A DNA stretch of 64,000 bases from Candidatus Omnitrophota bacterium (GCA_026387335.1 JAPLLX010000003.1:138230-202229); one strand, 5' to 3'; counted from the first letter of the stretch, positions 6,843-60,470 are shown. Program-made: numbers and translations. The notes: generated from the letters alone by a model not told the origin.

Positions 6843-6843
6843 A

Positions 6844-38441: not shown

Positions 38442-38449
38442 ATTTAAAA

Positions 38450-38486
38450 GTCATTGCGAGTCCGCCATAGGCGGACGAAGCAATCC
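38450..38486. repeat. small palindromic hairpin element (copy a), immediately downstream of the cupin gene stop
   Basis: gtcattgcgag-TCCGCC-ata-GGCGGA-cgaagcaatcc. An inverted copy with compensatory stem changes lies at 40624-40659. Confidence 0.55.
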
Positions 38487-38491
38487 CTGAT

Positions 38492-38806
38492 TTAAGCCTT
38501 TATCATTACTAAAAGCATCTTAAAACGCTCTACAGCTTTTAAAGAATGCGTCTTATTCGCCGGCATAATAATTACTTCACCTGCTTTTAGGTTATGCTGC
38601 TTTCCGGCAATAGTAATTTCTGCCTTGCCGTCAAAGATATATACTAACGCGTCAAATGGCGCGGTATGTTCACTCAACCCCTGTCCCTTATCAAAGGCAA
38701 ACAAGGTCACCGTGCCCTTATCTTTCCTGATGACTTCTTTGCTGACAACAGAACCACCCTGATAATCCACCAAACTCACCAAGCTCTTCGCTTCTTCAAT
38801 ATTCAT
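38492..38806 (-). CDS. cupin-domain protein
   Basis: A 104-aa ORF with two beta-motifs (G(X)5HxH-like: GLSEHTAPFDALVYIFDGKAEI; GEVIIMPANKTHSL). Confidence 0.6.
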   Translation of the reverse strand: MNIEEAKSLVSLVDYQGGSVVSKEVIRKDKGTVTLFAFDKGQGLSEHTAPFDALVYIFDGKAEITIAGKQHNLKAGEVIIMPANKTHSLKAVERFKMLLVMIKA

Positions 38807-38842
38807 ATCTTACCTTACGCGGGGTCTGTCGAGCACACTCTT

Positions 38843-38961
38843 CGCAGGGACGCGTGATTTTTCCCAGCGTGAAAAATCACGCTCGGCTACTCGACTGCGC
38901 TCTTGCTAGTTCCTTTATAGGTGGCAAACCTTGCCCGCTCCGCCTGCGTTACGCCCTGCTC
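38843..38961. repeat. 119-bp inverted repeat, arm A of an IR pair bounding a two-gene cassette
   Basis: The reverse complement aligns to 40452-40570 at ~80% identity, including an identical 30-mer gagcagggcgtaacgcaggcggagcgggca. Compensatory substitutions preserve the inner hairpin (gtgattttt/aaaaatcac versus gcgattttcc/ggaaaatcg). Confidence 0.6.
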
Positions 38962-39007
38962 AAAGTGTGTCTCGCCACCCGCTAAAGGACAACTAAGTAT
39001 TATGTCC

Positions 39008-39724
39008 CTACAAGTCCAGTCCTCTGGAACTATTTGTTAGAAATTTATTTTTTATATCTCGAATAACGATATCATTACCTTGCATTTGTTGTGGTGATAT
39101 TTCGAATTCAAATCTTGTATCGCCATTGACAATAACAAAAGCTTTACCGCTTATTACTTGACTATTTTCAGGAATCTTTACAAACCTTACTTGAATTATA
39201 TCAGATTCTTGAAGTATTTCGATTGGTTTACCTACAGCTGAATAATTGGATTGCATGCGAAAAACTCCTATATAAATAACTTCACCTTTTCCGTTTTGTT
39301 TAGCATCTGATTGCGTATCTGACATTAACAATAGCGGTTGTCTATTTTTCACGAAACAAAGCAACCCGCCAACATCCATATATCGAGTAGATACTTTTTC
39401 GTCAGATTTTATGGTAACTTCAACTTGAGCTTCCGCAGATGCTATTGATTTCTTGAGGGGATTTTCTAGTTCTTGAATTCTTTCGGCTAGTTTTTGTAAC
39501 CTCTCCTGTTCTGAACCTGTGTATTTTTCCAAAGCAATTGTTTTGAATGGTGTTAATTGGGTTTCTAATCGTTGAATTTCGGCTATTTTATCTGAATTTT
39601 CTTTTTCCAATTTCTTAATTACCCCAAGATTTATAATTATTTGGATAATAGCTATTATTAATAAAAATACTCCTGTTACTATTGCAGTTTGAACCGAAGC
39701 CTTTTGATACCATTTCTGAGCCAT
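39008..39724 (-). CDS. hypothetical membrane-anchored coiled-coil protein (AT-rich cassette gene 1)
   Basis: A 238-aa ORF with an N-terminal TM helix, a coiled-coil and a C-terminal beta-rich domain. It has no recognisable motif, and its GC is well below the flanking genes. Confidence 0.5.
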   Translation of the reverse strand: MAQKWYQKASVQTAIVTGVFLLIIAIIQIIINLGVIKKLEKENSDKIAEIQRLETQLTPFKTIALEKYTGSEQERLQKLAERIQELENPLKKSIASAEAQVEVTIKSDEKVSTRYMDVGGLLCFVKNRQPLLLMSDTQSDAKQNGKGEVIYIGVFRMQSNYSAVGKPIEILQESDIIQVRFVKIPENSQVISGKAFVIVNGDTRFEFEISPQQMQGNDIVIRDIKNKFLTNSSRGLDL

Positions 39725-39779
39725 AGTTATTTTATTTTTTCATCGTTCTAGGACTGCTTACTTCTAACTTATAAAAACT

Positions 39780-40415
39780 TCAGTTCCTTTTTACTTTAGT
39801 GCTTTTTTCTATCCTATCAAAAGTTATAGTGTTTTCTTTGCCGTCCTTAAGAAATTTCTGTTTGTAGTTATCTTTATCATAATCCTTTTTAATATCGAGT
39901 TTTTTTCCATTGAAATAATAATGAAATCTTTTCTTAATGTGGAATGGGGCTAAAATTCCAGAACCTCTATAAGAATACTCTAAACAATAACTTTTTGGCA
40001 GCAAATCGATATACGAAGCTGGAAAAACATCACCTACCTTGTCTTTATCTAATCTACCGGTTTCTACAGTTACGGTAGCATTAGCAAAAGGAGGGAAATT
40101 ACTTGTTCCCAGCCTTACCCCGCTACTATAAAAACCACTAAGATCTTCAGAGCACTTGTGTATTTCAATAACTACATTATGAAGAGAAGTATCACTGACC
40201 TCTGAAATAAATAAATCTTTATCAATCCTAGCACCTAAAGCAACATTGTATATATCGCGACTGCCATCGTTTCTAAGAATAAAGGTAAAAGAGTTATTTT
40301 TTAAGTTTTGTTCTATCTTAAGAAAAATCCGAGGGTAAAATATCAAATCAAAAATTATACTAAGTAATATAAGTATAGAAACGCCTGCAATCATAGAAAT
40401 TAAAAAAGGCTTCAT
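39780..40415 (-). CDS. hypothetical membrane-anchored protein (AT-rich cassette gene 2)
   Basis: A 211-aa ORF with an N-terminal TM helix, no recognisable motif and low GC. Confidence 0.5.
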   Translation of the reverse strand: MKPFLISMIAGVSILILLSIIFDLIFYPRIFLKIEQNLKNNSFTFILRNDGSRDIYNVALGARIDKDLFISEVSDTSLHNVVIEIHKCSEDLSGFYSSGVRLGTSNFPPFANATVTVETGRLDKDKVGDVFPASYIDLLPKSYCLEYSYRGSGILAPFHIKKRFHYYFNGKKLDIKKDYDKDNYKQKFLKDGKENTITFDRIEKSTKVKRN

Positions 40416-40451
40416 CTTATCCTCTCTTGTGGATGGCTTGGCTTAGTTTCG

Positions 40452-40570
40452 GAGCAGGGCGTAACGCAGGCGGAGCGGGCACGGTTCGCCCGCTATTTAA
40501 TAATTAGCGAGAGCGAAGCCGAGTAGCCGAGCGCGATTTTCCACGCTGGGGAAAATCGTGCGGCCCTGCG
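40452..40570. repeat. 119-bp inverted repeat, arm B (reverse complement of arm A)
   Basis: See arm A at 38843-38961. Confidence 0.6.
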
Positions 40571-40623
40571 AGAAACAAGACAAGGCAGACACAATTGATA
40601 TCTATATTTTCAAATGAGCAAGA

Positions 40624-40659
40624 GATTGCTTCGGCTGCCTATGGCAGCCTCGCAATGAC
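40624..40659. repeat. small palindromic hairpin element (copy b, inverted), immediately downstream of the SPFH gene stop
   Basis: The reverse complement gtcattgcgag-GCTGCC-ata-GGCAGC-cgaagcaatc matches copy a, with compensatory stem changes. Confidence 0.55.
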
Positions 40660-40660
40660 G

Positions 40661-41548
40661 TTATTTAGCTGGTTTTTCTTCCTTCTTCTTCAAGGGTAAA
40701 AAACCGGCCATTTCACCGATTACATTGACTAATTCCGTATTCGCCGGAACGACAATTTTTGCGTTATTCTGCAATGATTTTTCAACAGCTTCTAATTTCC
40801 GCAGCACCTGAGCATTCCCCACAAAATATTCTTCCGCTGCTTCATTGACTAGTTTAATCGCCGTTGCTTCGCCTTCAGCTTCTAAGATTCTTGCCTGCTT
40901 TATACCTTCAGCCTTTTTAATCTCGGCGCGTTTCTGTCCATCAGCAGCAGTTTCGGTGGCGGTAGCAAAATCAATTGCCGCTATTTTTTCATTCTCGGCC
41001 TTGACCACCTTATTCATTGTCTCCTGGACATCTTTAGGAGGATCGATTTCTTTTAATTCGGTCCTGACTATCTCTAAACCCCAGGTTCCGGTTTCACTGC
41101 AAAGAGTATTATGCAACTCCGCGTTAATTTTGCCTCTCTCGCTGTTCGCGGATTTTAGAGTAAGTGTACCGATAATATTTCTTAGGGTTGTGCGGGCGAG
41201 ATTTACAATCTGCCACTGGTAATTATTCACGCTATATTGCGAACTTTTTACACTTTGCTCGTCTGCCTTGACCTTAAAATAAACCTGCGCGTCAACTTTG
41301 GCATTCAGATTATCATTAGTGATGATCTCCTGCGGCTCAGCATCCACCATTTGCTCAGTTGTATTAACCTGATAAATAACTTCGATAAAAGGGAAAATCC
41401 AGTTAAACCCGGGGTTAGCAAAACGGTTATACTTCCCAAATCTTTCCACTAGGCCGCGGTGCGTAGGCCGGACAATCCTGATACCCATAAAGAAAAATAA
41501 AACTACGCCAATAATTATTGCGACTGTAACATCCATACCCACCTCCAT
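40661..41548 (-). CDS. SPFH/band-7 (stomatin/prohibitin-like) membrane protein
   Basis: An N-terminal TM segment is followed by IVRPTHRGLVERFGKY, an SPFH domain. Confidence 0.8.
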   Translation of the reverse strand: MEVGMDVTVAIIIGVVLFFFMGIRIVRPTHRGLVERFGKYNRFANPGFNWIFPFIEVIYQVNTTEQMVDAEPQEIITNDNLNAKVDAQVYFKVKADEQSVKSSQYSVNNYQWQIVNLARTTLRNIIGTLTLKSANSERGKINAELHNTLCSETGTWGLEIVRTELKEIDPPKDVQETMNKVVKAENEKIAAIDFATATETAADGQKRAEIKKAEGIKQARILEAEGEATAIKLVNEAAEEYFVGNAQVLRKLEAVEKSLQNNAKIVVPANTELVNVIGEMAGFLPLKKKEEKPAK

Positions 41549-41572: not shown

Positions 41573-42571
41573 CTAAGCTATGCGCACTTTTTTATTGCCT
41601 TTAACAACTTCTCCGATAATCCAGGATTTTAACTTCTGGCTTTGTAGTTTTAAGATTATAGAATTTACCGACGCAGGCGTAACAATTAAAACCATGCCTA
41701 TGCCCATATTCAAGGTATGATACATTTCGCGTTCGGGTACATTACCCTTATTTTGAATAAGGCGGAATATTTTCGGCACATTCCAGGAATTTTTGTCAAT
41801 CTTAACATCCACATTACCGGGGAGGATCCTGGCGATCTTATCGTAAAAAGCTCCTCCGGTAATATGCGCGATTCCTTTGATAAATTTACTCGGTAATAAA
41901 CTTAAAACCTGTTTTACATAAATGCGCGTGGGCGTAAGCAACTCTTTACTCATCCGCTTAAGTTCGCTGGTAGAAAAAACTTTTCTCACCAATGAATAAC
42001 CGTTGGAATGAATTCCACTTGATTCTAAGCCAATAACCACATCGCCTGCCTGAATGCGGCTTCCGTCAATAATTTTATCCCGCTCAACCACTCCTACGCA
42101 AAACCCGGCAATATCATATTCTCCTGGCCTGTACATCCCGGGCATCTGCGCGGTCTCTCCGCCAATCAGAGAACAACCGGACTGAATACAGCCGTCGTTA
42201 ATGCCTTTTACGACGTCTATTAATACTTCTTCCTTAACTGTGCTGTGAGCGATGTAGTCCAGGAAAAATAACGGCTCAGCGCCCGCGCAGAGAATATCAT
42301 TCACATTCATCGCCACGGCGTCAATGCCTACGCTATCGTGCTTATTCACTAATCCCGCTATTTTTAATTTTGTGCCTACGCCGTCGCTTGAGGAGACCAG
42401 AACCGGATTTTTATATTTATTCTTATCCAGCTTAAAGAAACTACCAAACCCGCCGATATCTTTTAAAACTTCTGCCCGAAAAGATTTTCTAACCAATGGC
42501 TGGAGTTTAGATTTAAACGCGCTTGCGCTGTCTATATCCACCCCTGACTTCTTATAAGTTACTCTTTTCAT
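41573..42571 (-). CDS. purM: phosphoribosylformylglycinamidine cyclo-ligase (AIR synthetase)
   Basis: MKRVTYKKSGVDIDSA...DGVGTK...GGETAQMPG matches PurM. The start is trimmed so that it overlaps the purF stop as ATGA. The track ORF extends to 42673. Confidence 0.9.
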   Translation of the reverse strand: MKRVTYKKSGVDIDSASAFKSKLQPLVRKSFRAEVLKDIGGFGSFFKLDKNKYKNPVLVSSSDGVGTKLKIAGLVNKHDSVGIDAVAMNVNDILCAGAEPLFFLDYIAHSTVKEEVLIDVVKGINDGCIQSGCSLIGGETAQMPGMYRPGEYDIAGFCVGVVERDKIIDGSRIQAGDVVIGLESSGIHSNGYSLVRKVFSTSELKRMSKELLTPTRIYVKQVLSLLPSKFIKGIAHITGGAFYDKIARILPGNVDVKIDKNSWNVPKIFRLIQNKGNVPEREMYHTLNMGIGMVLIVTPASVNSIILKLQSQKLKSWIIGEVVKGNKKVRIA

Positions 42572-44013
42572 TTTATAATTTCTCCTTGGCCACAACAATG
42601 CGTCTCCAGCGAAAATTTTCCCTGCCTCTTCTCTGCCCTTACCGGATATTTTCCGGTCCAACAGGCAGCGCAATTCCCGATTCCGGAATTTTTAAAACAA
42701 CCCAGCATCCCCCCGAGGCTTAAATACCCCAGGCTATCCACTTCCATATACTGCCGGATTTTATCTAGCGATTCGTATTTATTGGCGATTAATTCGCTGG
42801 TTTTATGGAAATCAATCCCGTAAAAGCAGGGAAAGCGGTGCGGCGGACAAGATATCCTTAAATGCACTTCTTTAACTCCCGCTTTACGCAAATTGCGCAC
42901 GCGAATCTTGGAAGTTGTTCCGCGCACGATAGAATCATCAACCACGATGATCCGTTTTCCTTTTAGAACATCCCTGAGCAGGTTAAATTTAACCCGCACT
43001 CCTAAATCCCGCGTATCCTGCATCGGCTGGATAAATGTCCTGCCGACATAATGGTTACGGATGATCCCCAATTCTAACGGGATCCCCGATTCCTGAGAAT
43101 AACCCATGGCCGCTGAAAATCCTGAATCCGGAACAGGAACAACAAAATCCGCGTCCACCGGATGCTCCTGCGCAAGTTGGCTGCCTAATTTCCGCCTGAC
43201 TGAATGCACGGTCTCTCCGAAAACAACTGAATCCGGACGGGAAAAATAAACGTGCTCAAAGGTGCAGAAGGCGTGTTTATTGGAATGTAATTCTTTAGGT
43301 TTAATTGACCTTAAACCCGTGTCATTAATGATAACGATTTCGCCGGGTTCAATATCGCGGATATATTTAGCGCCGACTAAATCAAAGGCGCAGGTCTCTG
43401 AAGCTAAGACCCAGGAATTACCCAGCTTGCCTAAAGATAAGGGCCGAAAACCATACGGGTCCCTTATGCCGATAAGGCTGTTATCCGCGATCATAACTAA
43501 AGAATAAGCGCCTTTAATCCTTCTTAAGGCGTAAATAAGGCTATCTTCCAGATTGCGCAATTTGGCCCGGGCCATAAGATGAATAATTATTTCGGAATCG
43601 GTTGTAGTCTGAAAAATTGAACCGGTCTTTTCCAAATACTGGCGCAGTTCCAGAGAATTCACCAGGTTGCCATTATGCGCGATGCAAACCGAACCCTTGG
43701 CATAATCAATTAAAAGCGGCTGGGAATTTTTTAAGACGCTTGAGCCGGTGGTAGAATAACGCACATGGCCCACAGCCATATTTCCCTTGAGCCGGGCTAA
43801 GACCGCCTCATTAAAAACATCGCTGACTAAACCCATTTCTTTATGTATGGATAAAACGCCTTTGTTATTGGCGACAATTCCGCAGGCTTCCTGGCCCCTA
43901 TGCTGTAACGCGTAGAGCCCAAGATAAGTAAGCCAACTGGCGTGTTTATTATTATTTATCCCGAATAAACCGCAATACTCCTTAGGTTCATCGTTATTAT
44001 TTTCTTTTGGCAT
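42568..44013 (-). CDS. purF: amidophosphoribosyltransferase (propeptide plus Cys1 Ntn glutaminase, PRTase, C-terminal Fe-S cysteines)
   Basis: A propeptide MPKENNNDEPKEY precedes CGLFGI...LQHRGQEA. The PRPP loop is VVDDSIVRGTTS. The C-terminal cysteines are CFKNSGIGNCAACW. Confidence 0.9.
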   Translation of the reverse strand: MPKENNNDEPKEYCGLFGINNNKHASWLTYLGLYALQHRGQEACGIVANNKGVLSIHKEMGLVSDVFNEAVLARLKGNMAVGHVRYSTTGSSVLKNSQPLLIDYAKGSVCIAHNGNLVNSLELRQYLEKTGSIFQTTTDSEIIIHLMARAKLRNLEDSLIYALRRIKGAYSLVMIADNSLIGIRDPYGFRPLSLGKLGNSWVLASETCAFDLVGAKYIRDIEPGEIVIINDTGLRSIKPKELHSNKHAFCTFEHVYFSRPDSVVFGETVHSVRRKLGSQLAQEHPVDADFVVPVPDSGFSAAMGYSQESGIPLELGIIRNHYVGRTFIQPMQDTRDLGVRVKFNLLRDVLKGKRIIVVDDSIVRGTTSKIRVRNLRKAGVKEVHLRISCPPHRFPCFYGIDFHKTSELIANKYESLDKIRQYMEVDSLGYLSLGGMLGCFKNSGIGNCAACWTGKYPVRAEKRQGKFSLETHCCGQGEIIK

Positions 44014-45421
44014 TTTTTACTCCGTTTTTTGGCTCTTTACCTAACCAACAGTATAAGCAAAGTTTATTTTCCGGCAGGCCTATCGCCGCGATCATATCCT
44101 TTAACTTCTGGTATTTTAAAGTAGTCGCTCCCAAATCTTTGTTAATCCATTCTACCATTTTTTTATGTTCGCCAGAATTTTCATTCAGGTATTTGGATAA
44201 ATTCTTGGTATCGCTTCCCGTAAGGGCCTTGATGGCTTTACGCGCCGCCAGTTCGTGGATGCTGCGGGTGGAATAATTGTATTTACAGGGAAACATTAAT
44301 GGCGGACAGGCTATCCTTAAATGCACTTCCTTGGCCCCGTTTTCTTTAAGCTTACGTATCGTATAATTTTTTAGCTGTGTGCCGCGCACAATGGAATCAT
44401 CGCAAAAAACCAGGCGTCGGCCTTTAATGATCTCCAGAATGGGGATTAATTTCATCTTGGCGATTAAATCGCGCTGCTCCTGGGTAACCGGCGTATAGCT
44501 GCGGTCATACCCGGGAGTATATTTTATTAACGGCCGGCGCAGCGGTATCCCGGATTCCATACTATAGCCTATGGCGTGGGCTGTCCCTGAATCCGGAATG
44601 CCGGCGACCATATCGGCGTCTATAGTGTCGGATTTTGCCAACATGCAGCCGCAGCGTTCCCTGGACATCTCCACATTTATATTCTCATAACAAGAAGCCG
44701 GAAATCCCGTATAAATCCATAAGAAAGAGCAGATCTGGTTAGTCTTGGCGCCTTTACGTTTTAGCTTAATCCCGGACTCATCAAGCAAAACTATTTCGCC
44801 CGGCTCAAGATACTTCACAATTTTATAACCTAAGTTTAAAAAGGCGGAGGTTTCGGTGGTCACTGCCCAATCCTTGCCTTTCTTACCGACGATTAACGGC
44901 GTTAATCCGAACCTGTCCCGGGCAGCGTAGATCCCGTCCTTATTTAATAATAATAACGAGCATGACCCTTCAATTTTAAGGAACATTTTTTCAATACCGC
45001 TGACAATATTTTTTCCGCGGATAAGCATTTTAGCGATCAGCTCGGTAAAGTTTACCCGGCCGGAGGTGACTTCGCTAAAAGACTTCCCCTCCTTAAACAG
45101 CTCTTTGGCTAACTTCTCGGCATTATCAATATACCCATTGGTAATAATGGCGAACGGCCCGAATTTGGAATTTATCACCACCGGCTGTTCGTCTCTGGCG
45201 CTGATGGCGCCTATGCCTTTAGCCCCTTCCATATTTTTATAGTCTTCGTGAAATTTAGCCTTAAACTGGCTGCCCCTGATATCGTGGATTTTGCGCTGTA
45301 ATCCTTTTCCGAATACGGCTAACCCGGCAAATTGCGTGCCCAGGTGCGAATGATAATCCGTGCCATAATATAAATCCTCAAGGCAGTGTTTCTTGGAAAT
45401 TACCCCAAATATACCGCTCAT
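43997..45421 (-). CDS. PurF paralog lacking the Ntn catalytic cysteine (glutaminase-dead amidophosphoribosyltransferase-like)
   Basis: The protein begins MSGIFGV (Ser where Cys1 is expected), and the oxyanion Arg is replaced (YHSHLGTQFAGL versus LQHRGQEA). The PRTase motif VFCDDSIVRGTQ and the C-terminal Cys cluster are retained. A strong SD (GAGGAG) and an in-frame stop sit directly upstream of the ATG. Confidence 0.7.
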   Translation of the reverse strand: MSGIFGVISKKHCLEDLYYGTDYHSHLGTQFAGLAVFGKGLQRKIHDIRGSQFKAKFHEDYKNMEGAKGIGAISARDEQPVVINSKFGPFAIITNGYIDNAEKLAKELFKEGKSFSEVTSGRVNFTELIAKMLIRGKNIVSGIEKMFLKIEGSCSLLLLNKDGIYAARDRFGLTPLIVGKKGKDWAVTTETSAFLNLGYKIVKYLEPGEIVLLDESGIKLKRKGAKTNQICSFLWIYTGFPASCYENINVEMSRERCGCMLAKSDTIDADMVAGIPDSGTAHAIGYSMESGIPLRRPLIKYTPGYDRSYTPVTQEQRDLIAKMKLIPILEIIKGRRLVFCDDSIVRGTQLKNYTIRKLKENGAKEVHLRIACPPLMFPCKYNYSTRSIHELAARKAIKALTGSDTKNLSKYLNENSGEHKKMVEWINKDLGATTLKYQKLKDMIAAIGLPENKLCLYCWLGKEPKNGVKNAKRK

Positions 45422-45432
45422 TTATCTTCTCC

Positions 45433-46212
45433 TCACAGATGCTTCCTGCAATATGCTACCCCGTTTTTAAAAATACCTAACCCGTCTCCCTGTTTTTTAT
45501 TCTTCAAACTGAACCAGCGCGGATGCTGATGAATTTCAATGTGCCTTTCCGGATGCGGCATAAGCCCTAAAATCCTGCCTGTCGCATCAGTAATACCGGC
45601 GATATCTTCCAGCGAGCCATTGGGGTTATCCGGATAGCTACCAGGCTTTCCCCGCGCGTCGCAATATTTAAAAATAATCTGGCTGTTTTTTTTAAGCTTA
45701 TTCAAAATAGAATTATCTTTTACAATAAATTTACCTTCGCCGTGGGCAACCGGCAAATAAATAATCTGCGGGATATTCTTGGTCCAAATACATTTACCGC
45801 TACTTTTTAGATACACCCAGCGGTCTTCAAATTTTCCTGAATCATTAATAATAAGGCTTGTGTCCTGTTCAGAATTCGCATTCCCAGGGAGTAAACCGCT
45901 CTTAACTAAAATCTGAAAACCATTACAAATTCCGATAATTAATTTACCTTCGTTAACAAATTGCCTTAGCTCTTCTCCTAACTTACACTTTAACTCATTG
46001 GCAAAGACCTTACCTGAGGCAATATCATCCCCGTAACTAAACCCTCCGGAGAAAGCCAGGATTTGATAATCCGCCAGGCTCTTCTTTTCCCCAATAAGAT
46101 CATTTATATGGACGAACTCGCTCTCTGCCCCGGCTTTAGCGAAAGCAAAAGCAGTCTCTTTATCGCAATTGGTCCCGGCTGTCCTGATTACACAAACTTT
46201 AACCTTGCGCAT
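45433..46212 (-). CDS. purQ: phosphoribosylformylglycinamidine synthase, glutaminase subunit
   Basis: MRKVKVCVIRTAGTNCD...GICNGFQIL matches a class I GATase PurQ. Confidence 0.85.
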   Translation of the reverse strand: MRKVKVCVIRTAGTNCDKETAFAFAKAGAESEFVHINDLIGEKKSLADYQILAFSGGFSYGDDIASGKVFANELKCKLGEELRQFVNEGKLIIGICNGFQILVKSGLLPGNANSEQDTSLIINDSGKFEDRWVYLKSSGKCIWTKNIPQIIYLPVAHGEGKFIVKDNSILNKLKKNSQIIFKYCDARGKPGSYPDNPNGSLEDIAGITDATGRILGLMPHPERHIEIHQHPRWFSLKNKKQGDGLGIFKNGVAYCRKHL

Positions 46213-46888
46213 AGAATTTCTTGATTGCCGCGACTACTTCCTTGGGTTTGTCAACTACCGTAAAAATATCCAAATCCGATTTACTGATATTCCCATTAGC
46301 CAGTACAGCTTCTTTCAACCAATCCAACAGCCCGTTCCAATAAACGCTTCCGAACAATATAACGGGAAATTTATTTATCCTCTCGGTCTGAATAAGGTTG
46401 ATCGCCTCAAAAAATTCATCCAGCGTGCCGTAACCTCCCGGCAAAATCACAAACGCCTTGGCGTATTTAACGAACATAACCTTCCTGACAAAAAAATAAC
46501 GAAAATCCAATAGAGTATCCACGTACTCATTTGGTTTTTGTTCGCAAGGAATATGGATGTTTAAACCGACGGAATGTCCCCCTGCCCGGCGCGTTCCCTT
46601 ATTTGCCGCTTCCATCATCCCGGGCCCGCTTCCGGTAATTACGGCGTAGCCTGCCTTGGCCACATGATAAGCGACTTCTTCACCCAATTTATAATATTCT
46701 GTGCCGCGCGTTGTCCGGGCTGAACCGAATATCGAAACAGCCTTACCGATTTTAGAAAGGACCTCAAAGCCTTCCACAAACTCAGACATAATCCGGAATA
46801 CGCGCCAGGGGTCTTCCCGCGTAAAATCGTTAACTAAATCTACCCTACGGATACAAGATTTTTTTACCATTTTAACGGCTCCTTCCAT
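46199..46888 (-). CDS. LOG-family (TIGR00730) nucleotide 5'-monophosphate phosphoribohydrolase
   Basis: VSIFGSARTT...ITGSGPGMMEAANKG...VILPGGYGTLDEFFE contains the PGGxGTxxE LOG motif. Confidence 0.75.
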   Translation of the reverse strand: MEGAVKMVKKSCIRRVDLVNDFTREDPWRVFRIMSEFVEGFEVLSKIGKAVSIFGSARTTRGTEYYKLGEEVAYHVAKAGYAVITGSGPGMMEAANKGTRRAGGHSVGLNIHIPCEQKPNEYVDTLLDFRYFFVRKVMFVKYAKAFVILPGGYGTLDEFFEAINLIQTERINKFPVILFGSVYWNGLLDWLKEAVLANGNISKSDLDIFTVVDKPKEVVAAIKKFYAQG

Positions 46889-51455: not shown

Positions 51456-54074
51456 TCAGCCTAAAACGATGCTTACAAGATTGAGGGAGGATTTTTGTAG
51501 GGATTTGCGGTTAATGAGGATGCGCTGAGAATCGGTTAGTGGCAAAGGCCGGGAGTTTAAAGAGGCTTTTAATATCCTGTACTGGCCATAATCCAGCTTC
51601 TTAGGATTAGAAATATTAACCTGCAGCTTTGAGCCGGCAAAGGGCCGGTTCACGCTGATTGTTGGATTCAGCTTGAATTGTTCAGCCGTTAATTTTGGTT
51701 CAATCAATAAATCACCGTTCTCCCCCCGGACGCCAAAGGCTTGCGTCACTAAAGTCAGGATAAACCAACTGGCTGAGCCGGTAAGATACGCGTACATTCC
51801 CCGGCCTTCGGCATTAAAATACTCCGGAAGACAGGGATAAATCTTGCTCTTTTTTGTATCAACGGCTAATTTATAAAGCGAACTCAAGGCCTTCCACCCT
51901 TCCTTGGCCAAACCGCGGCTGTAAAGGCTATAAGCATACATTACAACCATGTGACTAAAAATCGCGCCGTTCTCCTTATCGCCGTAAGAGAATGAAAATG
52001 CCCGGCCCAGGTTATGCTGCTCAACTTTAAAATCAGTATTCAAATGATAACCTTTTAGTTCTTTATCTAAAAGATATCTGTTTACGCTCTGGATAATCTT
52101 ATCTACCTGTTTACTATCGGCAACCCCGGACATGATCGGAAAAACCTGCGCGGCCAGGCACATCCTTAGTAAACCATTTACTTTTCCTTCTACCCGCCTC
52201 TTCTTATTATCATAATAGCCGTTAAAGAATCCCTGCTTTAACCATTCGCTTTTACGGATATGCCCTGTCAGCCACAAGGATTTTATTTTTAAGTTACGCG
52301 CCAGCGCCTCCACCTTCACTTCTTTTTTCCTCCCTGAAAGAGAGAGCGCGGCTTTAGCAAAATAAGCGTCGAGAATCTTACGTTTTTCGTTTTTGTTATT
52401 ATAATCAAAATCTTTAAGCAAGATCAGCATCTCTTCGGCGAGCCGGATTTTCTTTTTCCCGGTTTTTAATAAAAGTTCGGCGAGGCGTTTTAAATTTTGA
52501 GCGTACATCGCGCTAAAAGCTACGCTTTCGCCATACTCTTTCGCCATATCCAAACCGTCATTCCAGTCCGCGCCCTCTAGGCGAATATAGTTATGCGGCC
52601 CGACATTAAAAAACTGGCTCAGGTTCTGGATCAAAAGATGCTCATAAAGCGGGCCTTTGCCGATTTTACGCTTATTCCAATCCCGGTCAATTTTTGTGGA
52701 GCGCCAGGTATGCTGGTCGCAGAAATACGCCACTTCTGCAAACAAAATAGCTAAATCCCCGCTTTCGTTTATATAAAAATCAGTAGTTATTAACGGCCAG
52801 ACTCCGTGGTCCATCCAGACGCGGGGAATATCGTTACGGTCGGCGATAAATTCGCCCGGCTTCTTTCCTACGATCGTAGCGTTAGAACCATCAGTCCTCA
52901 CCCCCCGAAAATTATTCAGCAAGAGTGAGCGGACTTGTTTGGGGTCGCTTAAAAGTAACCCTAAACAATCCTGCCACAGGTCGCGCCAGCCGCGGCCGCC
53001 TTTGCCGTAATCAAAATCCGGTAAGAACGAACACCCGAATATTTTTCTTAAAACCGGCTGGATATTCACCCAGTTAAGCCAATTGTCAAAATCGCCATCC
53101 GCGCTCGCTGTTTTAATCGCGCGGGATTTCTCCAGCCAAAATAACTTTGTTTTCTTAAGCGCTGCCTCAATTTTGGCGTTGGTGTTAAATTTATTTAAAA
53201 GGCGGTTGATTTCCCCAGAGCTTTCAGTAATGCCCATCAGGATAATATAAGAACAACTGCTTCCGGGACGAAGGGTGATCTCCCTAAAACGCAAAGCTCC
53301 CATCGGCTCTTTACCCTGAATGTTCCTCTTATCAGGTAAAAGATCATTTAAAATTGCCTGCGGCGCCTCTAAATCCCCTCCTTCACCGCAAAACATCTCC
53401 TGTGTCGGATAAATATATTGCGGAGCACAGGCCTTACCATCAACGCCTAAAACAAAATAATTCTCTTTATTCGGTTTATGCCCTGCCTCGTCAAAAGAAA
53501 GCGTGGGTTTGGAGATGACGCCGTATTTATTTAAGGTCAGGCGCTGCAGCAAGGAAGTTACCTGGCGGTGGTCACGGATGTTATTGGCGCCTCTGGCATA
53601 AAGAGGAATAGCTGCGGTAGGAATGAATTTTATTTTCTTAGAGCTAATGTTGATAAGCTTAACCTGCATTAACTCTAGCGGCTCTTCCAGCGGAATAAAA
53701 GAAAGGGTCTCTGCCCTTAAGCCTATTTTCTTGTTTTCTCTGGTAACCTTCTGCCAGAGTAGCCCGGCTTTTAGATCAACGCGATCCTCTTTAATCAGCC
53801 TTAAATCCTTGGATACGCCGGTAGCTGACCAGGTTTTATGCGGATCAATATAAATCCAAAAGTTTCTTGAGGCCCGGGAAGTGGTCAGGTTTAGGCGTGA
53901 AACAGGTTCTAAAAGAAAGGAACTCTGTCCGGCCTTAATATCTCCGTGCAGGTCAGGGGATACCGACGACATAAGGACTGCGTTACCCAGCGGAAAATAA
54001 AGGCTTTTGTTTTTATCAGCCGAAGGAAATTCAAATGTGCCTGAATTATCAATAAAATTCCAGATTCTTTCCAT
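51456..54074 (-). CDS. GH94/GH65-superfamily glycoside phosphorylase-like protein (cellobiose-phosphorylase-like)
   Basis: An 872-aa ORF. GKGGRGWRDLWQDCLG resembles the GH94 GRGMGFRDSNQD catalytic loop. The N-terminal YFPLGN resembles the GH94 N-terminal domain. Confidence 0.5.
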   Translation of the reverse strand: MERIWNFIDNSGTFEFPSADKNKSLYFPLGNAVLMSSVSPDLHGDIKAGQSSFLLEPVSRLNLTTSRASRNFWIYIDPHKTWSATGVSKDLRLIKEDRVDLKAGLLWQKVTRENKKIGLRAETLSFIPLEEPLELMQVKLINISSKKIKFIPTAAIPLYARGANNIRDHRQVTSLLQRLTLNKYGVISKPTLSFDEAGHKPNKENYFVLGVDGKACAPQYIYPTQEMFCGEGGDLEAPQAILNDLLPDKRNIQGKEPMGALRFREITLRPGSSCSYIILMGITESSGEINRLLNKFNTNAKIEAALKKTKLFWLEKSRAIKTASADGDFDNWLNWVNIQPVLRKIFGCSFLPDFDYGKGGRGWRDLWQDCLGLLLSDPKQVRSLLLNNFRGVRTDGSNATIVGKKPGEFIADRNDIPRVWMDHGVWPLITTDFYINESGDLAILFAEVAYFCDQHTWRSTKIDRDWNKRKIGKGPLYEHLLIQNLSQFFNVGPHNYIRLEGADWNDGLDMAKEYGESVAFSAMYAQNLKRLAELLLKTGKKKIRLAEEMLILLKDFDYNNKNEKRKILDAYFAKAALSLSGRKKEVKVEALARNLKIKSLWLTGHIRKSEWLKQGFFNGYYDNKKRRVEGKVNGLLRMCLAAQVFPIMSGVADSKQVDKIIQSVNRYLLDKELKGYHLNTDFKVEQHNLGRAFSFSYGDKENGAIFSHMVVMYAYSLYSRGLAKEGWKALSSLYKLAVDTKKSKIYPCLPEYFNAEGRGMYAYLTGSASWFILTLVTQAFGVRGENGDLLIEPKLTAEQFKLNPTISVNRPFAGSKLQVNISNPKKLDYGQYRILKASLNSRPLPLTDSQRILINRKSLQKSSLNLVSIVLG

Positions 54075-54595
54075 TAAGCTGCCGGTCTCATCTTTATTTC
54101 CTGCAATGCTTGGATGACCTGGAACAATAATTGTTCGCCTTTTTTAACTAAAGGCGCCCTTTCTTTATCCATGATCGTCGGGTCATCTTTTTCCAGCGCC
54201 TCTATCGCCTTGTTATACGCCGCGATGTCGTTATCCAGCACCTCTAAGAACATCTTGCTTATAGCGCTATATTTCTCTATAGGCACGCTGGCTAAATATG
54301 CGGTCTTTACATCTTCCAGCAATTTTTTCTCAGCTGAATAATAATTGACGGCGACCGCATTGCCAAAAGCGTCTTTCTTCGGGACAAAAGTTACTACTTT
54401 GTTACGGCAAATGAGCTTGCCGCTGGTTATGTTTTTTACCCTGTCTGCCAGGCTCAACATCGTGTTTACATAAACAGCTTTCGACAGCGGCTTGGGCGCT
54501 GTAGTTACTTTCTTCTGATGAGTAAACTTTAGACCAAAGAAAACTAAACCCAAAAACACAACAACTACCACCCCGAATATCCCGATTCTCTTCAT
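54074..54595 (-). CDS. hypothetical membrane-anchored protein
   Basis: A 173-aa ORF with an N-terminal TM helix. Its stop overlaps the downstream gene start. Confidence 0.4.
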   Translation of the reverse strand: MKRIGIFGVVVVVFLGLVFFGLKFTHQKKVTTAPKPLSKAVYVNTMLSLADRVKNITSGKLICRNKVVTFVPKKDAFGNAVAVNYYSAEKKLLEDVKTAYLASVPIEKYSAISKMFLEVLDNDIAAYNKAIEALEKDDPTIMDKERAPLVKKGEQLLFQVIQALQEIKMRPAA

Positions 54596-54626
54596 ATTAT
54601 CGTCCCCTTTTCTTATTGAACCAGCC

Positions 54627-54914
54627 TTAAGAAACCTTGGGCGTATTCATAAACTCTACGCCGATTTCATACCTATCATCTTTAGTATCTTCCCTGACCC
54701 ATACAACTCTGGCAAAACCATCATAGGAGAACTCCGTTAAAGAAAACCTTATCTTTAAAATAGTCTCTTTAGGAATAAATTCATGCGTAAAGAAACTTAC
54801 CCCTCCCTGGCTGATATTCCGGGTAAGAAAAAACTGCGTTTTCGGGTTGTTGGAGATTTCGTATGCTATATTCAGGGATTGCGGTATCCGGACAAATTTC
54901 CTTCGGTCTATCAT
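54627..54914 (-). CDS. PilZ domain protein (c-di-GMP receptor)
   Basis: RRKFVRI (RxxxR) and NISQGG (NxSxxG) are present, and the length is 95 aa. Confidence 0.6.
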   Translation of the reverse strand: MIDRRKFVRIPQSLNIAYEISNNPKTQFFLTRNISQGGVSFFTHEFIPKETILKIRFSLTEFSYDGFARVVWVREDTKDDRYEIGVEFMNTPKVS

Positions 54915-54929
54915 GATATAAGTATTCTT

Positions 54930-55346
54930 TTACTCGCCTATTATCTTTATTAAAACCCGTTTCTTACGCTGGCCGTCAAATTCTCCATAGAATATCTGCT
55001 CCCACGGCCCAAAGTCCAGCTTGCCGCCGGTAATAGCCGCGACAATCTCTCTACCCATTACTGTTCTTTTAAGATGAGCGTCTGCGTTATCCTCTCCGGA
55101 TAGATTATGTTTATATTTCTCTTTTCCGTAAGGAGCAAGCTTTTCTAACCAACCGCTAAAATCATCATGCAGGCCTGTCTCATCATCATTAATAAAGATC
55201 GAACTGGTTATGTGCATCGCGTTAACTAGACACAGCCCTTCTTTAACCGCGCTTTTATTAACCGCCTCTTGGACCAGCGGGGTAATATTTATAAACTCCT
55301 GCCTCTTTTTAGTGTTAAACCATAAATATTGAGTATGGGATTTCAT
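54930..55346 (-). CDS. YjbQ/UPF0047 family protein (secondary thiamine-phosphate synthase-like)
   Basis: [18 protein letters not shown]...HLKRTVMG is the UPF0047 signature. Confidence 0.7.
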
Positions 55347-55383
55347 TGATTTTATTATACCCCAAACAAAACTCTAAAACAAC

Positions 55384-55417
55384 AAAAAACCCGCCGGATT
55401 TCTCCAGCGGGTTTTTT
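55384..55417. terminator. bidirectional rho-independent terminator
   Basis: aaaaaacccgc-cggatttctcca-gcgggtttttt has an 11-bp stem flanked by an A-run and a T-run. It lies downstream of the minus-strand operon ending at 55573. Confidence 0.6.
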
Positions 55418-55572
55418 ACTGATTGGCCATGTTGGTATAGGTAATAATTATATCTCTTAATACTAATAAACTAATTATATAGAAAAATTATCACCTATCT
55501 TGAGGGTAACATATCCAAAAGAAAGCTATCTTCTGTGCGGCTACCTTAATGTCGTAAAGCTGAAGCAGATAT

Positions 55573-57252
55573 CTACTCTTGACTCCAACCAGAACAAATT
55601 CCTTTTGTAAAATACAGGTTTATTTTCTGGTTACCAATTTTATAGGTAGCAGTAATGACTTCTTGTGTCTTATGATTCTTCAATAAATTAACTGGTTTAT
55701 CAAAAAGGATGCTTGCTTCTTCAAAAGTTATTTGCTTTATTACATCTAGAGCATCTATTTTACCAACATACCTTTTTATTAATTCTTCTCTATTCTCTGA
55801 CGAAGGACCTGATGATTTACTCGCTTTAGAATACTGCATTATATTCTTAATGAATGTACTTACTAAACTTTCCCTTTTCTCGGTCTTCTCGTCTGGCTTG
55901 ACAAACCCTGACAAGGAAGATTCTGAATCTGTCGAAACTCTATACTGCAATATTCGTTGAAATATAATATTATCTTTGTCTTTTTGGATATCAACATCAA
56001 ACTCATATTTCAATTTATCTGCTATCCCATCATTTGACAGTTGTGAATTTCGGCCATTAATAAATCCGATACTAATCTTATGCTTTCCTGGTGGAATAAA
56101 TAGTGGATAAATAATAACATGTTCGGGTAGCAGGCTCCAATATCTTATGTCTGCTTTTGGATTTGTTATCCCACTCATAATAGCTGCCCCACCTGAGAAT
56201 AAAGCAGAAATTCCTGCTGCTGCAGCCAATGCGGCCTTTGAATACTGATCGGACGTCTGGTTAGCTTGATTCAAAAGTTGTTGAGAAAGACCAATCGCTG
56301 CTACAGAAGTATTTGCTGCGTTAGTTTTAAATTGAGCTTTCCCCTTTAGTATCGCATCCATCTTCCTTCCGCCTCTTGTGCTTGCCTGAAAATATATATC
56401 TGTATTAGAATATACTTGATTTTCTGCACTTACTTTGCCATCAATCTTTATATTCCAACCACTAATATCGTACCGATTCCCATTTATCACTGCTAATTCA
56501 CCGTATCGGCCCCTTCTTGACTTAAATGGCCCTTCGCCGAATTCAATAACTAATAAAATATTATTTTTTAGATCAAGTATTTTATTTATAAATTCATCAC
56601 TGAAACCAAGGCTAGAATAATCAGGATTATTTTCTAGTTCCTTAACTACGTTATAATAATCACTGCTTAATGATTCTTCTCCTAATTTATTAGAAATGCG
56701 CGAAACAAGCAAATAAAGTATCGCGATATCGCTTTTATATGCTTCCCCCTTTGAATCAGAATCTGCTAATATTCCATTTTTTAAGGCAGCTTTCGCATTT
56801 TCTAAGTCTCCTTTATTGTAAAGCAATAATCCTACATACAGCGAATTCATCGCTTTTTCGTATGGATCGCCTTTATAGGCCTTACTATCCTCAGAACCTG
56901 TTAAGGAAACTGCCCCGCGCTCTAGTTCTTTAAATGCAGGAATATTATTCATCAGATAATGCGCTTTTAAAAACGCGTCGAGCGCTTTATCATAATCTCC
57001 TTGGGCTAAATATATTGAACCTAATTGATTATCCCATAAGGCATAATTCCTATCCCTTAGCTTAGATGCCTCTTCATATGTTTCTGTTGCAGTCTTAAAG
57101 TTGCCAGATTGAATTTGGTAATTGTAATCACCAATTTTTTCAAAAGAATACTTGTCTACATGCGCGCAGGAAGCCAGAAGCACACTGCAGCAAATCAATG
57201 GTAAGACTTTAACTGCTTGGATAATCTTTTTGTTTTGTGGGATTAGTTTCAT
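55573..57252 (-). CDS. TPR-repeat lipoprotein
   Basis: A signal peptide with lipobox LLASC is followed by TPR-like repeats (LGSIYLAQGDYDKALDAFLKAHYL). The gene is AT-rich. Confidence 0.5.
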   Translation of the reverse strand: MKLIPQNKKIIQAVKVLPLICCSVLLASCAHVDKYSFEKIGDYNYQIQSGNFKTATETYEEASKLRDRNYALWDNQLGSIYLAQGDYDKALDAFLKAHYLMNNIPAFKELERGAVSLTGSEDSKAYKGDPYEKAMNSLYVGLLLYNKGDLENAKAALKNGILADSDSKGEAYKSDIAILYLLVSRISNKLGEESLSSDYYNVVKELENNPDYSSLGFSDEFINKILDLKNNILLVIEFGEGPFKSRRGRYGELAVINGNRYDISGWNIKIDGKVSAENQVYSNTDIYFQASTRGGRKMDAILKGKAQFKTNAANTSVAAIGLSQQLLNQANQTSDQYSKAALAAAAGISALFSGGAAIMSGITNPKADIRYWSLLPEHVIIYPLFIPPGKHKISIGFINGRNSQLSNDGIADKLKYEFDVDIQKDKDNIIFQRILQYRVSTDSESSLSGFVKPDEKTEKRESLVSTFIKNIMQYSKASKSSGPSSENREELIKRYVGKIDALDVIKQITFEEASILFDKPVNLLKNHKTQEVITATYKIGNQKINLYFTKGICSGWSQE

Positions 57253-57295
57253 TTTTAATTAAGGGAAGCGTGCTAGATCTAAACTAGGATGTGCC

Positions 57296-58294
57296 TTATC
57301 TTTCTGAAGTATTATTTCCGTAGATTCGATTCCAAAGGTTAGTTTCGGTATTCTTTTTAAGAATAACTCTCTTCGCCGAGACAATATCTCCTTCTTTAAT
57401 TAGAACTTTTATGTCCAAAGATTTAGCTAAAGATAAGCTCTTTTCTAAAACATCTACAACCTTGATCTTAGCAATCTCTGTTTGCTTATAACCAAGAACC
57501 TGGCCAGTAGTTTGATCTTTAATTGAATCTTCTAAGCGAATTACAGCAAAAACATCATTTTTTTCAATTTTATCATCAAACCCAGCATTTATATATACAC
57601 CTTTATCATCTAAACGCACCACACGACAAGTCCAAGGGTTGCCTTCTAAATCATCCGATAAAGCATGAACTGCACGTGCTAATGCCTTTTGCAAATAATC
57701 CCTCTGCCCTGTTCCGGTTGAGATTACAGCTCCTGTATTAACATCTACTAAACGCAATGTTATTGTATATTGGGTAGAGCTAAACTGTTCACCGCCATAA
57801 TTAGGTAAAATTTCTCCGAGCAAAATATATTGCACCCCATAAATATTCCCTAGCTCATTAGCGGGATCTTTTTTCACCCAATCTGATTTTTCAAATTTAA
57901 TTTCCCGAATCAATTGGTTTACCTCTTGCCGCTCCACAACTTCAAACTTATCGGTCTTTTGAAGAAGGTCGGATAACATTCCTACAACTGAGTTAACTTG
58001 CGGTACTCCGGGTTTTTCAAGATTTGGCGTAGAAATGTTAATATTATACGTTTGAGACCTGCTATCCTCTTTTTCGGCGGTTTTATTAAACGGACTCCCG
58101 GGAATATCGACTGATTCACCAAAGCTACCAATCGCTACTTTATATTTTATATTTTTTTCTTTAACCCGATTTAATTTTTCCTGAGAATATTTAAATTCTT
58201 TCTTTTCTCCTTCTCCCGCCTGAACAACCCCCCGAGTCAAAAATCCAAATACAAAAAATAAAGTAAATAAACTAAAAAACAACTTTTTTTTCAT
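57296..58294 (-). CDS. CsgG-family (curli-secretion-channel-like) protein
   Basis: A signal peptide is followed by MLSDLLQKTDKFEVVERQEVNQLIREIKF, which matches the CsgG core AMLVTALKDSRWFIPLERQGLQNLLNERK. YILLGEI matches IMVEGSI. Confidence 0.55.
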   Translation of the reverse strand: MKKKLFFSLFTLFFVFGFLTRGVVQAGEGEKKEFKYSQEKLNRVKEKNIKYKVAIGSFGESVDIPGSPFNKTAEKEDSRSQTYNINISTPNLEKPGVPQVNSVVGMLSDLLQKTDKFEVVERQEVNQLIREIKFEKSDWVKKDPANELGNIYGVQYILLGEILPNYGGEQFSSTQYTITLRLVDVNTGAVISTGTGQRDYLQKALARAVHALSDDLEGNPWTCRVVRLDDKGVYINAGFDDKIEKNDVFAVIRLEDSIKDQTTGQVLGYKQTEIAKIKVVDVLEKSLSLAKSLDIKVLIKEGDIVSAKRVILKKNTETNLWNRIYGNNTSER

Positions 58295-58313
58295 CGTTTA
58301 CTCCTTATGTTCT

Positions 58314-58742
58314 TTACTGGGCTTTACGAATACGAATCGTGTAATCCTTGGCCTTAGAATTAAAAGCAGTTGTTTTATATGCGTACGTAGAATACTGAGG
58401 AATCAAGATAAGCTCCCAATTAGTATCGTCACCTATCTGAAAACCTTTGTCGTCGCGAAAAATAGTTTGAACTTGCAATCTTAATAACTCTTTTTTCATA
58501 TTGCGTATCTCGCAATATACTTTTAGCCGATTATCATCGGTTAAGTCAGTTTTCTGAGCTAAAATGACAACTCGCTTTTGAGAAAACTGATTGTCCAGAT
58601 CCTTATCGAGAATAACTACTTTCAGATTCCGTTCCTTATCCTGATTAACACTATAGGGAATAGTATGATAAGGACCAGCGGCGCAACCATTTAGAATAAA
58701 AATTCCAACTGCTATAAAAAATATAGAAGAAAGTTTTGACAT
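58314..58742 (-). CDS. small lipoprotein (possibly DUF4810-like partner of CsgG-family proteins)
   Basis: A signal peptide with lipobox LNGC begins a 142-aa ORF. The family assignment is by operon context only. Confidence 0.4.
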   Translation of the reverse strand: MSKLSSIFFIAVGIFILNGCAAGPYHTIPYSVNQDKERNLKVVILDKDLDNQFSQKRVVILAQKTDLTDDNRLKVYCEIRNMKKELLRLQVQTIFRDDKGFQIGDDTNWELILIPQYSTYAYKTTAFNSKAKDYTIRIRKAQ

Positions 58743-58765
58743 ATTTATCTCCTTATCGTTTAAGT

Positions 58766-59362
58766 TTATTGATAGGCAACCCCTGATTCACCAACTCGTT
58801 TTATCTCATAAGAATCTTCCCAAATAATATCGCTAGTTTCCGCATCAATTAATTGAAAAGCCATTAAGACATAATCTGACCGGTTGTTGCTAACTGCCTT
58901 TGATAATCCAGTTAATTCTCCAGTCAAATAAAAATCAACTCCGTAAAGATCGCCCTCCTTACTAGCTGTTACTAAATTCTTTCTTTTAGCTTCACGTTCC
59001 TTAAGGATATCATCTATTCGGTCGCGGGCAAGAAATCGTACCTTTCCGGTAGCATTTTTATTAAGTTCCATTCGAATCTTTTGAGTAAAAATATCTTTAT
59101 TAATTATAAATCGTGTACTGTTCTTAACCGGTAGAAGGGCGATTCGAGGAGTTCCTTGAGCATTCATAATCTCGGGAACCTCTAAGATAGAAATGGCCAT
59201 CTTCCGGGCAACCGTTAGTAAGTCTGTCGATTCAATACCAGTCCCACCTAAATTATCATCATTATCAGGGAGGATCACATTTGAGTGCGAAACCGGAACA
59301 CTAGCACATGATGATAATGTTATTGTAAATAAAATCAATACTAACAATTTAAAATGTTTCAT
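58766..59362 (-). CDS. lipoprotein (possibly DUF799-like partner of CsgG-family proteins)
   Basis: MKHFKLLVLILFTITLSSC has the lipobox LSSC. The protein is ~200 aa, and the family assignment is by context only. The track ORF extends to 59398. Confidence 0.4.
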   Translation of the reverse strand: MKHFKLLVLILFTITLSSCASVPVSHSNVILPDNDDNLGGTGIESTDLLTVARKMAISILEVPEIMNAQGTPRIALLPVKNSTRFIINKDIFTQKIRMELNKNATGKVRFLARDRIDDILKEREAKRKNLVTASKEGDLYGVDFYLTGELTGLSKAVSNNRSDYVLMAFQLIDAETSDIIWEDSYEIKRVGESGVAYQ

Positions 59363-59425
59363 TTCTCTCCCCTTTCGTCTCAAGATGACTTTTAACATAG
59401 ATTTATCTATTTTTGGAACAAAAAA

Positions 59426-59449
59426 ACAATTCCCTCTATAGAGAATTGT
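59426..59449. promoter_or_regulatory. 24-bp near-perfect palindrome (candidate operator) upstream of the lipoprotein operon promoter
   Basis: ACAATTC-cc-TCTATAGA-GAATTGT matches its reverse complement at 22 of 24 positions. It lies ~30 bp upstream of a sigma70-like -35/-10 (TTGTTC-16-TATGTT) and the SD AAAGGGGAGAG. Confidence 0.35.
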
Positions 59450-59549
59450 CTATAAAATTACATATCTAATTCTATTGCCACTTCCTTGTGACATAGATTG
59501 ATTATACACTCCATAGGCTTATATTCAACATTTATTCCCTATTTTGCGT

Positions 59550-59577
59550 ACCGCCGGATTTCTAAAAGCGGTTTTTT
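59550..59577. repeat. terminator-like hairpin sharing a 13-nt core (ccgccggatttct) with the terminator at 55384-55417
   Basis: accgc-cggatttctaaaa-gcggtttttt. A direct repeat of the loop core and G/C stem lies at 55391-55403. Confidence 0.45.
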
Positions 59578-59610
59578 AATTATGGAAAATAATTATCCAA
59601 CTTGTTACAG

Positions 59611-60375: not shown

Positions 60376-60396
60376 AATCTATTGAAATATAAAAAA

Positions 60397-60470
60397 TTGC
60401 GGGGGACCGATTTGGACGGTCGACCTCAAGGTTATGAGCCTTGCGAGCTACCAGGCTGCTCCACCCCGCG
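60397..60470 (-). tRNA. tRNA-Met (CAT), initiator type; no encoded CCA
   Basis: The reverse complement is CGCGGGGTGGAGCAGCCTGGTAGCTCGCAAGGCTCATAACCTTGAGGTCGACCGTCCAAATCGGTCCCCCGCAA. Its D-arm is identical to E. coli tRNA-fMet. C1:A72 is mismatched and the anticodon is CAT. Confidence 0.85.

Follow-up and report, generated by a model that had tools for sequence, protein, structure and literature searches.

Two foreign-looking genes for predicted membrane-anchored proteins in a MITE-edged variable slot of an Omnitrophota purine operon

Gene content and base composition of the locus

The window analyzed here, i.e., the whole stretch of 64,000 nt, derives from a Candidatus Omnitrophota MAG and contains a purine operon on its minus strand. 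The genes follow the order purQ, purF-like, purF, purM, SPFH/Band_7, ORF211, ORF238, cupin, purD, purE, Sua5/LMW-PTP, rpiB and glyA, which agrees with the synteny of the closest relative, L064. The two genes of interest are ORF211 (39,780–40,415, minus strand; 211 aa, MCX5695697.1) and ORF238 (39,008–39,724, minus strand; 238 aa), both ORF calls and separated by 55 nt; the two protein accessions of the locus are MCX5695696.1 and MCX5695697.1. As an earlier note on this DNA had described, both are co-oriented with the operon, lying on the same strand as purM, SPFH, cupin and purD. Their conserved neighbor on the upstream side is the SPFH/Band_7 gene (40,661–41,548, minus strand; Pfam E 5.8e-39), which follows purM in L064 and L065. 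On the downstream side it is the Cupin_2 gene (38,492–38,806, minus strand; Pfam E 5e-10), which precedes purD in L064 and, in L053, lies downstream of a MITE, with inserted genes before purD.

The base composition of both genes departs from that of their surroundings. GC content is 0.313 for ORF211 and 0.329 for ORF238, and the kilobase they occupy has the lowest GC content of the 64-kb window, in line with the marked AT-richness reported earlier; the flanking genes range from 0.42 to 0.47, not the previously given value of approximately 0.48. GC3 is 0.25 for ORF211 and 0.22 for ORF238, compared with 0.40–0.52 in the thirteen-odd neighboring genes, a gap that reflects codon usage and not amino-acid composition. 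Together with the GC deficit of ORF238 relatives against their host loci and the spread of that family across phyla, both described below, the GC3 gap shows the two genes to be foreign in origin. Both are under purifying selection, with dN/dS values of 0.16–0.34 for ORF238 and 0.17–0.20 for ORF211 against several homologs; since dN/dS stays within 0.16–0.34, we regard them as real genes. A promoter and terminator scan gave no signal above shuffled background, and because none stands out, operon read-through was assumed; ORF211 and ORF238 are probably transcribed in this way.

Several further features of the window were recorded. A REP-like hairpin of 35 nt (TCATTGCGAG...CGAAGCAATC), an inverted-repeat pair with no strand assigned, occurs only twice in the window, at 40,621–40,662 directly past the stop codon of SPFH and at 38,447–38,488 between cupin and purD, just downstream of cupin; the 35-nt pattern itself covers 40,624–40,658 and 38,451–38,485, and it is absent from all fetched relatives. 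Two purF-like amidotransferase genes lie side by side in the pur operon, and synteny with L064 places a LOG/lysine-decarboxylase-like gene between purL and purQ (42,568–45,421 and 46,199–46,888). A second low-GC island (54,000–60,400; GC 0.34–0.37, window mean 0.43) carries genes for a TPR protein and two CsgG/LpoB-like lipoproteins. It abuts tRNA-Met (60,396–60,471), the sole tRNA gene of the window, and may be a tRNA-associated island.

The flanking inverted repeat

ORF211 and ORF238 lie within an inverted repeat whose arms (38,842–38,961 and 40,452–40,571) span 120 nt and are 85% complementary (blastn E 1e-22), with only two copies in the 64 kb. A 26-mer common to both arms recurs in 19 metagenome stretches, with several per contig, and elsewhere the sequence occurs as solo copies of approximately 160 nt that are 75–95% identical (L045–L064). 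Aligned copies have sharp ends, with a head (GCGGATGGCTTGGCTTGTTTC) and a tail (GAAACAAGACAAGGCAGACGC) that are mutually inverted. These ends form terminal inverted repeats (TIRs) of approximately 21 nt, in which the head and the reverse-complemented tail match at 17 of 21 positions, and the head pattern also matches tails. TA borders both ends of most aligned copies; several, including the right-hand copy of the window, are exceptions. Rfam searches of the whole window and of the region gave no match, so the arms are not a known riboswitch or sRNA.

In this study, we refer to the element as a MITE on the grounds of its dispersed copies, its sharp ends with inverted termini, its foldback structure and the lack of an Rfam family. 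The inverted-repeat arms are two inverted copies of this dispersed, approximately 160-nt foldback MITE, with their heads pointing inward. The R copy (40,429–40,592, plus strand) contains the right arm and has its head end (GTGGATGGCTTGG) toward ORF211 and its tail toward SPFH. The L copy (38,821–38,982, minus strand) contains the left arm and carries an L-type head variant, with the head toward ORF238 and the tail toward cupin. Each copy is predicted to form a closed foldback with paired termini (z −5.5 for R and −4.7 for L). Directly after the ORF238 stop lies a 22-nt junction (GGGACATAATACTTAGTTGTCC; 38,987–39,008, minus strand). Junction and MITE head together make up 39 nt that are 95% identical to L065 6760–6798 and to L067 6–44, and the junction also follows a different cargo gene in relatives.

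Three other readings of the repeat were rejected. An integron/attC cassette array was set aside by reasoning: attC sites are co-oriented, one following each ORF, and the two elements here are mutually inverted. An invertible phase-variation segment was likewise rejected by reasoning, as the arms belong to a dispersed repeat with solo copies elsewhere. Pairing of the two arms into a long-range dsRNA stem was rejected as well, each copy folding stably on itself.

Across the collected MITE copies, a low-GC gene starts beside the head, reading away from it, in 6 of 19 cases (with examples in L046, L050, L063 and L065), and never at the tail. To our knowledge, such a bias of low-GC genes toward the head end of a MITE is not a described property. 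At the cysS–tmk junction, L050 (3829–4877) carries a MITE and a 289-aa AT-rich membrane protein, and L052 (2155–2316) carries a MITE in the opposite orientation without cargo.

A strain-variable slot between SPFH and cupin

Relatives were selected as the closest purD homologs, and their contigs were inspected. L064 (purD 92%) contains SPFH, a degenerate MITE, YggT, cupin and purD. In L065 (89%), SPFH is followed by a MITE in R orientation, an Mrr_cat nuclease (E 2e-10), the 22-nt junction with a truncated L-type MITE head, Fic and purD. L067 and L068 (87%) carry Fic and then purD. In the more distant L053 (69%), purM is followed by a MITE in L orientation, cupin, three other small genes and purD. 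Homology between L065 and the window ends exactly at the R head and restarts 22 nt before the L head. The Mrr-like nuclease of L065 lacks a canonical start codon (6000–7911, together with Fic), and the operon slot of L053 (6338–7707) holds an AT-rich 224-aa membrane protein, DUF5674 and a 94-aa ORF.

This comparison shows that the segment between SPFH and cupin in the Omnitrophota purine operon is a strain-variable slot whose edges are marked by MITE copies. The interpretation of the two genes as an accessory insertion is thereby upheld, three relatives with the same backbone carrying other genes or none at this site. Had ORF211 and ORF238 been housekeeping envelope genes, homology to such a family and conserved pur-operon synteny would have been expected; neither was found, and L064, L065, L067 and L053 carry other genes or none. 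Since the backbone is kept and its content differs among relatives, a housekeeping role is ruled out.

The earlier description of the genes as cargo of a cassette bounded by inverted repeats holds only in part. The 120-nt, 85% repeat is real, but its arms are dispersed MITE copies, and the cassette does not behave as a unit: a cargo-free relative, L053, has the L copy in identical position and orientation upstream of cupin, and L065 has the R copy at the same site next to different cargo. These two observations also weigh against a composite transposon, in which the inverted MITE pair and its cargo would have moved in as one unit. MITE-flanked cargo is known elsewhere, and two inverted, TIR-bearing copies around 1.4 kb of foreign DNA are what such an element would look like. 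Nevertheless, the outer flanks carry no direct repeat, an absence that argues against a composite transposon, and no transposase with matching TIRs lies in the window, where a search for a cognate transposase gave no further TIR matches. At the DNA level, moreover, the window is homologous to other ORF211 and ORF238 loci over the ORFs only (±~15 nt), with no MITE there, and no 120-nt inverted repeats were found around homologs in other genomes. We therefore consider a composite transposon improbable. Exchange of cargo by recombination through the conserved flanks would be the simplest reading, with the MITE copies and the backbone genes probably serving as the homology through which cargo enters and is replaced.

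ORF211 and its small family

Searches against Pfam, NCBIfam, PHROG and PADLOC returned no family above threshold for ORF211 or ORF238, which agrees with the initial impression that neither could be assigned. The single N-terminal transmembrane (TM) helix proposed for each protein was likewise recovered, as one strongly hydrophobic N-terminal segment per protein. In ORF211 it starts at residue 4, with a Kyte–Doolittle mean of 2.8 over 19 residues, and is followed by a predicted beta-rich (Ig/CARDB-like) region. Flanking charges (positive-inside analysis) are ambiguous for the topology of both proteins.

ORF211 has six close homologs (73–100% identity). A HMMER scan added 13 remote representatives of 170–3339 aa; most of them measure 215–267 aa and align over nearly their full length, and most share the TM-plus-beta layout and the motifs GDVFP, SY..Y.Y.P.G and DFDG. 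Positions 17–76 of the ORF211 profile match repeats of giant DUF11 proteins (E 1.6e-12). The AF2 model consists of a TM helix and an all-beta part at low confidence (pLDDT 56), and Foldseek with this low-confidence model retrieved only generic Ig/cohesin sandwiches at high rmsd. ORF211 is thus best described as a putative bitopic protein with an Ig/CARDB-like beta region, belonging to a small orphan family.

The close ORF211 homologs with informative surroundings are found in restriction-modification islands. One lies with MvaI/BcnI, two methylases and Vsr; another with a methylase, a ResIII helicase and nucleases; and a homolog adjoins a lambda Ea47-like gene. In L001–L004, four independent assemblies break approximately 60–170 nt past the ORF211 homolog, which points to repetitive or strain-variable sequence just beyond the gene.

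ORF238 and its modular family

ORF238 can be divided into two parts. Its N-module (residues 1–92; 39,449–39,724, minus strand) comprises a predicted TM helix and coiled-coil stalk and bears the near-invariant motif EIQRLETQLTPFKTIALEKYTGSEQE, with P59 and A64 invariant; the hydrophobic segment starts at residue 13 and has a Kyte–Doolittle mean of 2.8 over 19 residues. Its C-domain (residues 93–238 and stop; 39,008–39,448, minus strand) is modeled as a beta-sandwich of PLAT/LH2-like fold. The AF2 model, built from 58 sequences, places helices at residues 6–67 and 72–86, followed by a 10-strand beta domain, and thereby agrees with the coiled coil and beta-rich C-terminal domain that the earlier note had proposed for one of the two proteins. 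The sandwich itself (residues ~95–225) is modeled with pLDDT above 90.

Foldseek against the PDB matched the ORF238 head best to the PLAT domains of lipoxygenases, of pancreatic and lipoprotein lipases and of C. perfringens alpha-toxin (E 4e-5 to 5e-2, probability ~1, ~130–150 aligned columns). The resemblance is at fold level only, with a TM score of ~0.3 over the whole query. ORF238 has no match in Pfam, PLAT (PF01477) included, at E up to 1; a PDB profile search with the C-domain is empty at E up to 10; and a PDB sequence search with the full-length profile yields coiled-coil noise only. Structure prediction combined with Foldseek, the check suggested at the outset, gave consistent PLAT matches for the ORF238 head and, for ORF211, a low-confidence model and generic matches. 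We consider ORF238 a predicted bitopic membrane protein with an anchor helix, a coiled-coil stalk and a PLAT/LH2-like beta-sandwich head.

In total, 127 relatives of ORF238 were collected. The N-module is common, at 45–70% identity, to proteins with unrelated C-terminal parts, which BLAST clustering separates into at least nine head classes: 65 window-like, 20 alpha/beta, 11 beta and 7 helical or TPR-like heads, with several smaller classes. No head has an enzymatic Pfam match; only coiled-coil and TPR matches were obtained. ORF238 itself is, judging from its identities, a mosaic protein: residues 1–40 are ~60% identical to one subgroup, and residues 41–230 are 75–87% identical to another, which is itself only 20–32% identical over residues 1–40. 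Relatives at 54–73% identity occur in Omnitrophota, Stahlbacteria and Phycisphaerae, and members sharing the N-module extend over about a dozen phyla, with the family also represented in Planctomycetes, Kiritimatiellota, Sumerlaeota, Lentisphaerae, Verrucomicrobia, Bacteroidales, Chloroflexota, Patescibacteria and Desulfobacterota. In 18 of 25 loci, the family gene lies at least 7 GC points below its host locus. Literature searches found nothing relevant. Taken together, the ORF238 family is an undescribed, widely transferred and modular family in which one conserved type of anchor and stalk is joined to nine or more different heads.

A phage origin was also considered, in which the two genes would be prophage remnants or morons, i.e., leftover superinfection-exclusion genes. 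The N-module does show a weak PHROG match to the phage membrane-protein family phrog_22697 (E 6.7e-4), and the lambda Ea47-like neighbor of an ORF211 homolog would fit such an origin. On the other hand, IMG/VR viral contigs, INPHARED phages and PLSDB plasmids contain no relatives of either family, a BFVD fold search returned nothing, and none of the copies is flanked by integrase or phage structural genes. This origin is accordingly very improbable.

Genomic neighborhoods and independence of the two genes

The earlier note had regarded the two genes as a pair forming one module. Their adjacency, co-orientation and 55-nt spacing, the membrane anchor predicted for each, their shared foreign codon usage and the presence of ORF211 homologs in restriction-modification islands would all suit a single two-component defense, abortive-infection or toxin-immunity module. 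The pairing is nevertheless contradicted by the neighborhoods, as the two families never occur together in the other loci examined and no neighbor family recurs. An ORF211-family HMM that included the remote members matched none of the ORFs in the ORF238-family loci retrieved up to that point. Conversely, in L001–L004 the ORF211 homolog is followed by unrelated sequence with no ORF238 relative, the downstream side of the L001 homolog included, and in L071 and L072 the neighbors of the ORF211 homolog are other than ORF238 relatives. PADLOC gave no match (in PADLOC-DB 2.0, ORF238 hits ZorB best, at E 0.42, and ORF211 hits nothing), and no toxin or enzymatic domain was identified. A joint module is hence improbable. 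Since each family occurs alone elsewhere, the genes are better read as two independent single-gene units than as a two-component system.

An all-against-all comparison of 129 neighbors from 24 ORF238-family loci revealed no recurrent partner, and the sole recurring neighborhood feature of the family consists of shikimate-pathway genes at two loci. The two N-module members there, L022 (3267–4403) and L036 (8001–10598), have different heads and come from different lineages, both lying among shikimate-pathway (aroE/aroK-like) genes. Individual ORF238 homologs lie in a defense island with HsdR, an nSTAND NTPase and PLD; beside HEPN, PDDEXK_3 and DUF4145; or in a 4-nt overlap with RhuM, and other contexts include GIY-YIG and a 23S-IVS protein. 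Most neighbors are nevertheless housekeeping genes, and no defense family is present in more than 2 of 24 loci. As to recurrence in defense islands, the check proposed earlier, some homologs lie among restriction-modification or defense genes, and the ORF238 family sits mostly among housekeeping genes.

Proposed role and significance

In plain terms, the locus is an ordinary accessory islet that encodes two hypothetical proteins. Our explanation goes further and takes ORF211 and ORF238 to be two independent foreign single-gene units in a MITE-edged slot, encoding membrane-tethered binders for which exclusion or sensing is the most likely role; we give it an even chance of being right. Both proteins would be envelope binders held at the membrane, devoid of catalytic activity. 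Most likely they would exclude or sense phages and other invaders, the specificity residing in the swappable head of the ORF238 type.

Alternatively, the two might be envelope, adhesion or host-interaction proteins unrelated to defense, for instance surface binders of a host-dependent bacterium or partners of the neighboring SPFH scaffold. A membrane anchor and stalk with a binding-type beta-sandwich or TPR head would suit such proteins, an SPFH gene adjoins the slot, and the closest relative carries the small membrane protein YggT there. These points are countered by the absence of the genes from close relatives, their foreign codon usage, the occurrence of the family across many unrelated phyla at high identity and the lack of SPFH beside other family members. 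We consider this alternative unlikely.

A bolder extension of our explanation treats the N-module as the mark of a new, widely transferred class of single-gene 'stalk plus swappable head' envelope proteins that recognize invaders, with inward MITE heads acting as portable homology arms or an integration signal for cassette exchange at operon slots. We regard this extension as a long shot.

If exclusion or sensing is indeed the role, the accessory and defense repertoire of uncultivated phyla (Omnitrophota, Planctomycetota, Patescibacteria and Desulfobacterota among them) would gain, with the ORF238 family, a modular recognition protein that is tethered to the membrane and non-enzymatic; one member, an N-module gene of the cultured Desulfogranum marinum (WP_205224352.1), makes the family accessible to experiment. 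On a small scale, the MITE-bounded slot clearly illustrates housekeeping operons taking up and swapping foreign genes. Wider interest is limited to the undescribed modular ORF238 family and the association of genes with MITE heads.

Comparison with known systems

The window element resembles Correia/CREE-type and IS630/Tc1-mariner-derived MITEs in its length of approximately 160 nt without an ORF, its ~21-nt TIRs and mostly TA-flanked ends, and in its many dispersed intergenic copies, foldback structure and placement inside transcription units. The likeness is one of features, with no sequence relation claimed and no cognate transposase found.

With respect to protein folds, the ORF238 head is like PLAT/LH2 domains as a beta-sandwich for which these are the best consistent Foldseek matches, but it differs in having no sequence similarity to them, in its 10 modeled strands and in belonging to a predicted bacterial bitopic membrane protein. 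For ORF211, the likeness to DUF11/CARDB Ig-like repeats is confined to profile positions 17–76; in contrast to DUF11, it has no Pfam match, is a single-pass protein of 211 aa and possesses conserved C-terminal motifs that DUF11 lacks.

Small membrane-anchored phage-exclusion and Abi proteins include T4 Imm and Sp, P22 SieA and lactococcal Sie. ORF211 and ORF238 have no homology to them and were not found on phages, yet like them they are small single genes of low GC content, with one predicted TM helix and without an enzymatic domain, and have a patchy distribution that sometimes includes defense islands. The organization of the ORF238 family, finally, recalls polymorphic toxins and phage tail fibers. 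Although its heads are non-enzymatic and it has neither an immunity gene nor a conserved neighbor, nor a secretion-system or virion context, it likewise combines a conserved N-module with at least nine unrelated C-terminal domains and displays intragenic mosaicism.
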